Virus record (IMG/VR): IMGVR_UViG_2663762857_000030
Span: 1 to 8,473 of that record
Source of the DNA: a virus
Taxonomy: Duplodnaviria; Heunggongvirae; Uroviricota; Caudoviricetes
DNA length: 8,473 bases
Direction: 5' to 3' (one strand)
Shown here: one piece after another, positions 4,678 through 6,286 of the stretch
How the letters are laid out: every line of letters starts with the position of its first letter
Position numbering within the stretch: position 1 is the first letter of the stretch
The notes under the pieces: generated by a model
The model's input: the letters and a program-made list of their open reading frames with translations, nothing else
Told to the model about the DNA's origin: nothing
The model's database searches: none
Program-made: the position numbers and the translations under genes

Positions 4678-4884
4678 ATGGCTGAAGAGAAAAAAGGCGG
4701 TGTTTCGGTGTACATAAGCCCCGACATCGTGAAGGCGCTCAAGGAACGCCACCAGCAGAACGTAAAAGCAGGCATTGCGGCAGGACTTGATCCGCTGGCG
4801 ATGGTTGAGCCGTCAACAGGCTGGCAGGTACGCTCCTATTTACGCGCGGCGCTGGGCATAAATCAGACTCATGGGGGTGAATAA
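4678..4884 (+). CDS. Hypothetical protein (68 aa) translationally coupled to the capsid gene
   Basis: ATG 4678 after AGAGGA (4662-4667); its TAA (4882-4884) overlaps the capsid ATG (TAATG). No family recognised. Confidence 0.55.
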   Translation: MAEEKKGGVSVYISPDIVKALKERHQQNVKAGIAAGLDPLAMVEPSTGWQVRSYLRAALGINQTHGGE

Positions 4885-5939
4885 TGGCAGTCAAAGCAAT
4901 GGCACTTAACACACACCAGCTTTTCGCGTACCTGAATCGCGAGGATATTGCGGAATTTAAATTTAGTCCGCTGTTTACCGCGCTGTTTTTCCCGAACGTG
5001 GCGACATTCAACACACAGGACATCATGTTAGATAACCTGGATATTGAAGAAGTCACTATGTCGGCGTTTTGTTCGCCTATGGTTGGTAGCCAGGTTCAGC
5101 GCGATAAAGGGTACGAAACCAGCATTATTCGCCCTGGCTACATGAAGCCAAAACACGAAATCGATCCATTAAAAACAATAATGCGCATGGCTGGAGAAGA
5201 TCCGGCACAGCTTAACGACCCTACCTACCGCCGTATGCGCCTGATTACTGGCAACATGCGCCGCCAGATAAACGCCATTAAAGCGCGCGTGGAATGGCTG
5301 GCGGTAAATGCGGTAACGACCGGAAAAAACATCATTGAGGGCGAAGGCATAGAGCGCTATGAAATCGACTGGAAGATACCGGAAAAAAACATCATAGAGC
5401 AGGCCGACGGTAAAAAATGGTCAGAGCAGGACAAAGACATACACGACCCAATCTATGACATTGAGCTATACGCAGATCAGGCAGGTTGCCCCGCAAACGT
5501 CATGATTATGGGCGTTGATGTATGGCGCATGTTACGCAGCTTTAAAAAATTCCGTGAACTGTACGATCTCTCCCGTGGTTCAGAATCCGCCGCAGAGCTG
5601 GCATGTAAAAACCTGGGCGAAGTGGTGAGCTTTAAAGGCTATCTTGGTGATCTGGCCCTTATCGTCTATTCCGGCAAATACACTGACAGCGACGGCACAG
5701 AAAAATATTTCCTTGATCCTGATTTGCTGGTCCTGGGCAACACCAACAACAAAGGGCTGGTGGCCTATGGTGCGATTATGGATCAGGAAGCGGTAAGAAC
5801 AGGCGCAACGCAAAACATGTACTACCCGAAAAACTGGATTGAGGACGGCGATCCGGCGATTGAGTACGTGCAGACGCACAGCGCACCGCAGCCGGTTCCG
5901 GCAGATATTCGCAAATTTGTTACCGTCAAAATTGCTTAA
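4884..5939 (+). CDS. Major capsid protein, phage lambda gpE family (351 aa)
   Basis: Several blocks match lambda gpE as I recall it: FKFSPLF-ALFF, PGYMKPKHE, DPTYRRMR, WSEQDK--HDP, RSFK, RGSES, VSFKGYLGDLALIVYSGKY, LVLGNT, YPKNW, GDPA, SAP. Length is close to gpE. Confidence 0.85.
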   Translation: MAVKAMALNTHQLFAYLNREDIAEFKFSPLFTALFFPNVATFNTQDIMLDNLDIEEVTMSAFCSPMVGSQVQRDKGYETSIIRPGYMKPKHEIDPLKTIMRMAGEDPAQLNDPTYRRMRLITGNMRRQINAIKARVEWLAVNAVTTGKNIIEGEGIERYEIDWKIPEKNIIEQADGKKWSEQDKDIHDPIYDIELYADQAGCPANVMIMGVDVWRMLRSFKKFRELYDLSRGSESAAELACKNLGEVVSFKGYLGDLALIVYSGKYTDSDGTEKYFLDPDLLVLGNTNNKGLVAYGAIMDQEAVRTGATQNMYYPKNWIEDGDPAIEYVQTHSAPQPVPADIRKFVTVKIA

Positions 5940-5950
5940 CGGGGGATTCT

Positions 5951-6286
5951 ATGGACACTCCATACATTGAGTTATTTGCAGGCAGTCAGCAGGTATCCAC
6001 GACGCTGGTACATTTTGCCGCTGATGCTGGCGTTATTCAGGAATTTACCCCGCTGATGCTGGCGGACAATGGCGAGTTTAAGCCGTGGGATGGTCAGGAA
6101 TCTGGGAAGGCTGTTTATCTGACCTCGTACCCCGTGGACACGTCAAAGCAGAAATCAGCACAGTGTTACAAGACGGGGATATTTAATATCGCCGCCGTAA
6201 ACTGGCCTGAGAGCGCCGACACTGACGCGAAAAAATGCGCCGCCTTTGCGGGTTCTGGCGTATCCGTTCAGCCGCTGGCGCGATAA
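5951..6286 (+). CDS. Head decoration protein, phage lambda gpD family (111 aa)
   Basis: Motifs TPLML, WDG, YKTGIF, WPE and AFAG are shared with lambda gpD as I recall it; length matches (about 110 aa). Sits directly downstream of the gpE-like gene. Confidence 0.75.
   Translation: MDTPYIELFAGSQQVSTTLVHFAADAGVIQEFTPLMLADNGEFKPWDGQESGKAVYLTSYPVDTSKQKSAQCYKTGIFNIAAVNWPESADTDAKKCAAFAGSGVSVQPLAR

Follow-up and report, generated by a model that had tools for sequence, protein, structure and literature searches.

Among the phage-inducible chromosomal islands (PICIs) of Gram-negative bacteria, EcCICFT073 is one for which helper-induced excision, replication and high-frequency transfer have been shown experimentally. 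It encodes homologues of the lambda major capsid protein gpE and decoration protein gpD (c1499 and c1500), a pair that is already known, having been described in 2018 by Fillol-Salom et al. Capsid genes are present in 21 of the 29 reference Gram-negative PICIs (PMC10111431), and the capsid homologue has been remarked on both in a review (PMC6893505) and in that paper on helper-embedded PICIs. Here we analysed an 8,473-nucleotide (nt) stretch of DNA, IMG/VR virus record IMGVR_UViG_2663762857_000030 (the whole stretch is called the window below), in which an earlier note, made from the letters alone, had read positions 4884-6286 as an E-like and a D-like gene of a satellite. We find it near certain that this pair is the c1499/c1500 pair of an EcCICFT073-family island, a cos PICI of the Rpp type, inserted here in tqsA. 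Profile comparisons add a third gene, whose product is homologous to the C-terminal scaffold domain common to lambda gpC and Nu3. We tentatively propose that the operon is a satellite-supplied shell kit, which would build or join normal-size lambda-type heads on helper portals and would be redundant when helper E, D and Nu3 are available.

The published experiments on EcCICFT073 set the terms for any such proposal. The DNA packaged from this island with lambda was all phage-sized, and deletion of c1499 or c1500 neither restored lambda plaques nor affected transfer by the resident helper (PMC6092414). When the genes downstream of the replication origin (ori) were expressed singly, only c1503, which encodes the redirecting phage packaging protein RppA, inhibited lambda, and deletion of c1503 fully restored lambda plaques (Fillol-Salom et al. 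2019, PMC6739421). In engineering work, the c1498-c1501 block has been named the island's "adaptable module" and swapped for cas9 or melA, and phi80 still transduces the resulting islands (PMC10530653, PMC10460865).

The genes and candidate signals of the corresponding module in the window are the following (aa, amino acids).

4594-4650, plus strand: candidate sigma-70 promoter, TTGCAC-16 nt-TATAAT with the -10 element at 4616-4621 (direct reading)
4678-4884, plus strand: 68-aa protein, c1498 equivalent (phrog_3255, 1e-36)
4884-5939, plus strand: gpE-like HK97-fold major capsid protein, 351 aa, c1499 equivalent (Pfam Phage_cap_E, PHROG and PDB matches)
5951-6286, plus strand: gpD/SHP-like head decoration protein, 111 aa, c1500 equivalent (Pfam HDPD and PDB matches)
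6299-6712, plus strand: 137-aa homologue of the C-terminal scaffold domain common to gpC and Nu3 (profile matches), probably the c1501 equivalent
6719-6741, plus strand: terminator-like hairpin GCCGGA-GAAA-TCCGGC followed by T7, at the end of the operon (direct reading; not in the list from the consensus scan)

The assignment to the EcCICFT073 family rests on both DNA and protein comparisons. The right arm of EcCICFT073 is 96% identical to window positions 4216-7871 over 3.66 kb, and identity to the CFT073 proteins is 95% for E, 97% for D, 90% for the 137-aa protein and 99% for Rpp. The order of the capsid genes and of their neighbours (PerC, cos, RppA, cos) is that of EcCICFT073.

The E-like protein matches Pfam Phage_cap_E (PF03864) over residues 27-349 of its 351 (6.9e-50; 170.4 bits against a cut-off of 22.9) and phrog_29, the major head protein family, at 3e-108. 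Against the lambda gpE structures 7VI9 and 7SJ5 it scores 4e-82; its identity is 43% to lambda gpE and 46% to the capsid protein of the CFT073 helper prophage. Its best PDB match is 3BQW (1e-228; 95% identity), the crystal structure of the c1499 product, a 2008 release labelled "putative capsid protein of prophage (E. coli CFT073)". An AlphaFold2 model of the protein (predicted local distance difference test score, 81) gave Foldseek template-modelling (TM) scores of 0.90 to 3BQW and 0.82-0.86 to lambda gpE (7SJ5, 7VI9). The protein is thus a full-length member of the PF03864 family with an HK97-type fold. It has the complete gpE architecture, and no large insertions or deletions relative to gpE were found. 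The residues that are fixed differently in satellites and phages cluster at 61-80 (the predicted E-loop), at 128-163 (the end of the spine helix and the hairpin that follows it), and at 330-342 (the C-terminus).

The D-like protein falls in the Pfam HDPD family (PF02924; 1e-17, 64.7 bits against a cut-off of 29.1). It matches the phage 21 SHP structure 1TD0 at 6e-13 and lambda gpD at 1e-9, and is 30% identical to lambda D. Its N-terminus is 3-7 residues shorter than those of phage D proteins and differs from them in sequence; in lambda, the N-terminal segment of gpD contacts the E-loop of gpE. The clade-specific differences in the predicted E-loop, post-spine region and C-terminus of E suggest that the satellite proteins are co-adapted to each other. 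In lambda, D (5747-6079) precedes E (6135-7160), and the satellite has the opposite order, E then D. The earlier note was therefore right about the positions of the two ORFs, both homologies and the reversed gene order, all of which describe a pair that had already been published.

We made two side observations on how the pair is arranged elsewhere. In a satellite clade with a 346-aa E protein (for example, L008, 10001-11392), E and D lie in the same frame 9 nt apart, so that losing one stop codon would fuse the capsid and decoration proteins. A 463-aa protein on one Logan contig (P0030) combines the Phage_cap_E and HDPD domains, and could be either a natural fusion or a sequencing error.

The third gene is where our analysis departs from the published accounts of these PICIs that we consulted, in which we found no mention of a Nu3-like identity for the gene after D. 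The 137-aa protein matches phrog_1999 at 6.7e-62, a family that lambda Nu3 itself matches at 2.7e-26, and also matches the C-terminal end of phrog_53 (head maturation protease) at 1.5e-9. By BLASTP it aligns with the C-terminal part of the S49 protease/scaffold protein encoded by the CFT073 helper (7e-10; 36% identity over 83 residues). When its family was compared by hhalign with a profile of the C-terminal ~200 residues of gpC/Nu3, built from lambda and three helper prophages, the two aligned over 122 columns with 97.4% probability and an E-value of 9.4e-12. Direct BLASTP against lambda Nu3 was not significant, so the homology is visible only through profiles and through the phage-21-type helper protein. 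Other searches gave little: Pfam and NCBIfam held no match, tblastn against phages returned a single weak match, and an exhaustive HMMER search of 1.8 billion representatives recovered its own narrow family and two distant proteins only. The predicted structure is all helices with a low-confidence or disordered C-terminus, and Foldseek found no meaningful match for this low-confidence model in the PDB. Many homologues (P0082-P0119) carry the NCBI name "phage head-tail connector protein". We rejected this name, as no Pfam or NCBIfam model matches and the profiles favour the gpC/Nu3 C-terminus; the label is probably wrong. Judged by these alignments, the third gene encodes a Nu3-like scaffold-domain homologue, an identification added by the present analysis. 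Its product may aid procapsid assembly or may compete with it. The earlier note had held that portal, protease, scaffold and large terminase were all missing; this stands for the portal, protease and large terminase, while the homologue at 6299-6712 supplies a scaffold domain.

Four genes, for the 68-aa protein, E, D and the Nu3-like protein, are packed into one operon with spacers of 11-12 nt and strong ribosome-binding sites; the replication module lies on one side of it and the cos-rpp-cos packaging module on the other. The stop codon of the 68-aa gene overlaps the E start (TAATG), which couples it translationally to the capsid gene. Directly upstream of E, this small protein is found at 46-94% identity throughout the clade with a 351-aa E protein, with an invariant GGV.VYIS.DI..AL motif, and it is absent from the 346-aa clade. 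It is intact in 80 of 80 IMG/VR loci; Pfam, NCBIfam and PDB profile searches returned no match for it. The candidate promoter overlaps a perfect palindrome of 15+15 nt (4619-4650, 100% complementary) that is followed by a T-run, and the region 4594-4650 may be a regulated promoter/operator of the module. TGCAAT-type repeats lie just 5' of the candidate promoter, with terminator-like hairpins further upstream at 4446-4463 and 4478-4516.

We next asked how the module is distributed and whether it has a history separate from that of phage head genes. At a coverage of at least 80%, we find the four-gene module in 590 of the 5,426 complete E. coli genomes, or about one in nine, including Nissle 1917 and O157:H7 and O25:H4 strains. 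Across 50,697 phage genome records, the encoded capsid proteins reach at most 48% identity to satellite E. All of the homologues that we looked up at 53-69% identity lie in a PICI layout, with E before D in every one: an integrase gene (int), usually an AlpA-family gene, replication genes, sometimes a gene for a single-strand DNA-binding protein (SSB), then E, D and a Nu3-like or AlpA-like gene, followed in most of these islands by an Rpp or Nu1-like gene. Their sources are Salmonella, Edwardsiella, Serratia and further E. coli, and some of them lie within a portal or capsid gene of the helper. A 37%-identical homologue, by comparison, belongs to a phage of the usual kind, in which the portal and protease genes are followed by D and then E. 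In neighbour-joining analysis the E tree and the D tree were congruent, and each parted the satellites from the phages. Satellite E and D are lineages apart from all sampled phage E and D. We rejected recent capture from a helper, since the nearest phage record is at most 48% identical and the gene order is permuted. Because an inversion would keep the order along the transcript, no single inversion can yield the E-D-Nu3-like order, and we infer that a single acquisition of an unbroken Nu3-D-E segment cannot account for it.

The module also bears the mark of selection. The ratio of nonsynonymous to synonymous substitution rates (dN/dS) was 0.115-0.18 for E, 0.095 for D, about 0.3 (0.33) for the Nu3-like gene, and 0.07-0.27 for the replication gene pri. 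Across the 80 IMG/VR loci, E is intact in all 80 and occurs as 68 distinct alleles, with a corresponding polymorphism ratio (pN/pS) of 0.147; that of D is 0.104. E and D are under purifying selection as strong as that on the replication gene, and are functional rather than decaying.

The window covers the right three-quarters of the island, and its other features are listed here.

1436-3190, plus strand: PICI primase/helicase gene, pri (Pfam D5_N 1.5e-15, DUF5906 and Pox_D5; phrog_864 DNA primase, 8e-174)
3198-3435, strand not specified: iteron field, candidate PICI replication origin (>10 TGTCTACC / GGTAGACA-type repeats and variants in both orientations, directly after pri)
3754-4164, plus strand: SSB (Pfam SSB, 4.8e-17)
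4175-4423, plus strand: PerC-family regulator (Pfam PerC 2.2e-34, residues 41-118 of open reading frame (ORF) 4055-4423)
6743-6820, plus strand: cos copy oriented toward rpp, with the exact lambda cosN 12-mer GGGCGGCGACCT at 6774-6785
6875-7309, plus strand: RppA, 144 aa, small-terminase-like (143 of 144 residues as in the CFT073 protein; PDB 6HLK RppC, 5e-31)
7478-7555, minus strand: second cos copy, convergent on rpp, with the exact cosN 12-mer at 7513-7524 on the minus strand
7589-7870, plus strand: 93-aa conserved protein (phrog_1561, 3.2e-54), "hypothetical" in CFT073 and in L001 and L014 (see below)
8240-8262, strand not specified: attR core CGGTGTAGTCACTGGTGTAGTCA, the right end of the element, inside tqsA (a single copy of the 23-bp repeat in the window)
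8327-8473, minus strand: 5' fragment of tqsA, at the right edge of the window

The closest complete genomes are EcPF5 (L014; 99.5% identity over 4476-8473) and strain 300033 (L001). In both, a 23-bp direct repeat stands at each end of an 11.2-kb element in tqsA, with an integrase and a helix-turn-helix regulator to the left of the region equivalent to the window. No portal, S49 protease or large terminase gene was found in the window by ORF list, Pfam or PHROG, and the whole 11.2-kb element of the closest genomes yielded no further head genes; portal, large terminase, tail and lysis genes are absent from both. A complete head module just beyond the window, the finding that would have spoken for an ordinary prophage fragment, did not appear: the island's flanks in the closest genomes are chromosomal (tqsA, pntAB, mdtJI), and given these flanks and the attachment (att) repeats we rejected a prophage fragment. 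The element has its own primase-replicase (pri) and adjacent candidate origin, the position of which fits the ori described for Gram-negative PICIs (PMC6092414). As a side observation, the island is a mosaic whose two arms differ in their closest relative: identity to EcPF5 and to strain 300033 is 99.5% and 95%, respectively, for the right arm and 93.6% and 97% for the replication arm. The break (window 1-4476 versus 4476-8473) lies near the SSB/PerC region at about 4060-4476. The likely start of the PerC gene is an internal ATG of ORF 4055-4423, the CFT073 homologue being annotated at 249 nt. Pfam and NCBIfam searches gave no match for the 93-aa protein. When relatives were sought in genome contigs with the E-like protein none was confirmed; the patterns used were too specific, and the representative E. 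coli is probably island-free.

The packaging module is equally characteristic. Around rpp, the two cos copies form an inverted repeat with arms of 78 nt (81% complementary), and each copy is 91-93% identical to lambda nt 1-45; for the first copy, 6774-6817 is 91% identical to lambda nt 1-44. With RppA and two lambda-type cosN sites that match the lambda left end over 44-45 nt, the island is an Rpp-type PICI. With a unit of 11.2 kb, four units come to 44.8 kb. Lambda packages roughly three-quarters to just over one genome length, a range that includes 44.8 kb. Published work describes packaging of the island as concatemers in full-size heads, with the requirement that it remain an exact fraction of the helper genome. 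Multimer packaging explains the small size of the element, which the earlier note had taken as support for a small capsid. The function of RppA has been demonstrated experimentally (PMC6739421), and EcCICFT073 is reported to have two functional cos sites, cos1 and cos2. We found no discussion of their convergent orientation in published EcCICFT073 work.

What, then, could the shell genes do? We favour a structural role because the gpE architecture is complete, a homologue of the gpC/Nu3 C-terminus lies adjacent, and the E and D trees are congruent, and because the D-like protein could bind only on a lattice of E-type subunits. Under the shell-kit proposal, the E-like, D-like and Nu3-like proteins, as a co-inherited kit specific to satellites, would assemble into or alongside full-size lambda-type heads on the helper portal. 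The helper protease would mature these heads, and the helper terminase, redirected by RppA to the PICI cos, would fill them with PICI multimers. In laboratory crosses with lambda, phi80 or the CFT073 prophage, the kit would be redundant, since E, D and Nu3 are already provided by the helper; the kit would pay off only with a helper whose supply of capsid proteins is limiting, interrupted or defective. Redundancy in the laboratory is supported by the published deletions and by replacement of the whole block without loss of transfer.

Several observations weigh against this proposal and keep our support for it tentative. All phenotypes assayed so far are negative, and it is awkward to propose a benefit that three different helpers have never brought out. 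Within the module, the Nu3-like gene is the one least stably kept: among 78 close relatives, 2 copies are frameshifted and 5 are partial or replaced. It is absent from the Salmonella and Edwardsiella islands, and an AlpA-family gene follows D in three other clades. The Nu3-like gene is thus missing or replaced in other PICI clades, and the complete kit is not universal. Finally, in one Salmonella enterica genome (GCA_005980655.1; L011, 3292-12978), a PICI with E then D sits in a P2-like prophage, between its baseplate/tail-fibre genes and its tail-tube genes. The capsid protein of this prophage presumably belongs to a family other than that of gpE, so that, if the prophage is the helper, the satellite shell protein would have no homologue in the helper capsid.

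A bolder form of the idea is that EcCICFT073-type PICIs are "half capsid-forming" satellites, with their own co-evolving scaffold domain, capsid and cement on a stolen portal, and with protease, terminase, connectors and tails from the helper. Such islands would be intermediate between classical PICIs and capsid-forming PICIs (cf-PICIs), and would gain an advantage only with natural helpers beyond those tried. We consider this possible, though on the doubtful side. The advantage could then lie in more heads, in independence from the helper's E and D supply, in the use of defective prophages, or in another head size.

We also weighed explanations in which the genes do not serve to supply a shell. 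One is that the E-, D- and Nu3-like proteins co-assemble with the heads of some lambdoid phages and spoil them, an effect that would be invisible with lambda; the earlier note had raised such poisoning of helper heads. Identity of 40-48% to phage gpE makes faulty mixed assemblies conceivable, the Nu3-like C-terminal domain, which may target gpC/Nu3 to the shell, could compete with them, and the tests were limited to lambda, phi80 and HK97 and to single-gene expression. However, no module gene expressed singly cut lambda plaques, deletion of c1503 alone restored them, and deletion of c1499 or c1500 brought no relief from interference. A cognate decoration protein would also be hard to account for in a pure poison, and on balance we regard poisoning as unlikely.

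Another explanation is that the pair is a backup copy: related PICIs integrate in helper head genes (E, B) and replace the interrupted function, and chromosomal islands would retain the genes as a carried-over trait. This idea was put forward in PMC10111431, and fits helper-embedded PICIs in which the E-D pair lies in the portal gene (L004) or in gene E (L009) of lambdoid prophages. Against it, islands at chromosomal sites (tqsA here; others in CFT073, L003, L006, L008 and L012) show the same conservation and selection of the pair, the portal-embedded islands encode E and D and no portal gene, and the redundancy is not essential according to the same authors. A backup origin therefore seems to us quite improbable.

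Size redirection, the other role suggested in the earlier note, fares worse. Here the E-like protein would act like Ccm of SaPIbov5, forcing small heads with room for one or two PICI units but not for the helper genome, with particular natural helpers only. Satellite capsid homologues do so or are suspected of it in SaPIbov5 and PmCI172 (small heads plus a capsid homologue), one 11.2-kb unit would by volume scaling fit a T=3-sized shell, and packaged DNA size has been examined with lambda only. With lambda, however, packaged EcCICFT073 DNA is phage-sized, transfer is better at an exact fraction of the helper genome size, as multimer packaging in full-size heads predicts, and deletion of c1499/c1500 alters neither transfer nor interference. 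The published tests of the 95%-identical homologue thus reveal no Ccm-like size redirection, and, compared with gpE, the protein shows no insertion or deletion that points to an altered geometry. We judge small-head formation very unlikely. Least probable of all, and contradicted by the selection data, is that the genes are a degraded prophage fragment or a neutral, functionless relic: the published tests gave no phenotype, but the PICI architecture (int, alpA, pri, rpp, cos) lies within att repeats and chromosomal flanks, dN/dS is 0.1-0.15 with the reading frame intact in 80 of 80 loci, and the pair is conserved down to 53% identity over several enterobacterial genera.

Size redirection, poisoning, backup and relic are all less likely in our view than the shell kit, itself a tentative reading. 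On that reading, the kit is neither a size-redirection device nor the agent of helper interference, which is RppA.

The question worth answering is why so widespread and strongly conserved a set of shell-protein genes is retained although laboratory tests reveal no phenotype. The pair is textbook material in the PICI field, and is treated as disposable cargo space in engineered islands. Should its proteins turn out to construct the transducing particle or to become part of it, capsid-stealing and capsid-making satellites would no longer be sharply divided, and engineered "PICI drones" that lack the block might lose something in natural settings. Recognition of the Nu3-type neighbour makes the shell-kit question easier to test, by co-expression.

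Comparison with described systems places the island among elements that differ in how much of the particle they encode. It shares with EcCICFT073 its gene order, its neighbours and proteins that are 90-99% identical, and differs in its chromosomal site (tqsA here) and in a partly different left arm for replication and regulation, as expected of mosaic elements. The helper-embedded PICIs (11capE and relatives; PMC10111431) have the same E-D pair and overall layout and are integrated in helper late genes, whereas the present island lies in a chromosomal gene. Relative to the Nu3/C, D and E proteins of phage lambda, the satellite proteins have the same families and fold, the 137-aa protein aligning to the C-terminal 120-130 residues of gpC/Nu3. 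The transcript order differs, being E-D-Nu3-like here and Nu3-D-E in lambda, and the satellite clade has fixed differences in the predicted E-loop, after the spine helix, at the C-terminus of E and at the N-terminus of D. Of the lambda head genes, the satellite lacks the protease domain, portal, terminase A, W, FI and FII.

In SaPIbov5, likewise an island packaged from cos, the satellite protein Ccm is homologous to the major capsid protein of the helper. Ccm makes small capsids, and its deletion lifts helper titres 10^6-10^7-fold; the EcCICFT073 homologue does neither. Unlike the present satellite, SaPIbov5 has no cognate decoration protein alongside Ccm. P4 also encodes capsid-associated proteins, the decoration protein Psu and the external scaffold Sid, and steals the rest of its virion. 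Psu and Sid are not known to be homologous to any capsid protein of the helper itself, and by acting on helper gpN they give small T=4 heads, whereas the present proteins are homologues of helper shell proteins and no size change is seen. The cf-PICIs (for example, EcCIEDL933) share a related int, alpA and rep left arm and have their own major capsid protein. They also encode portal, protease, head-tail connectors, HNH, and the small and large terminase subunits TerS and TerL, and build their own small capsids. Of the cf-PICI set, the present island has the capsid protein only, to which it adds decoration and scaffold-domain genes. It therefore brings shell, cement and scaffold-domain genes alone, and its packaging runs via the helper terminase through Rpp.

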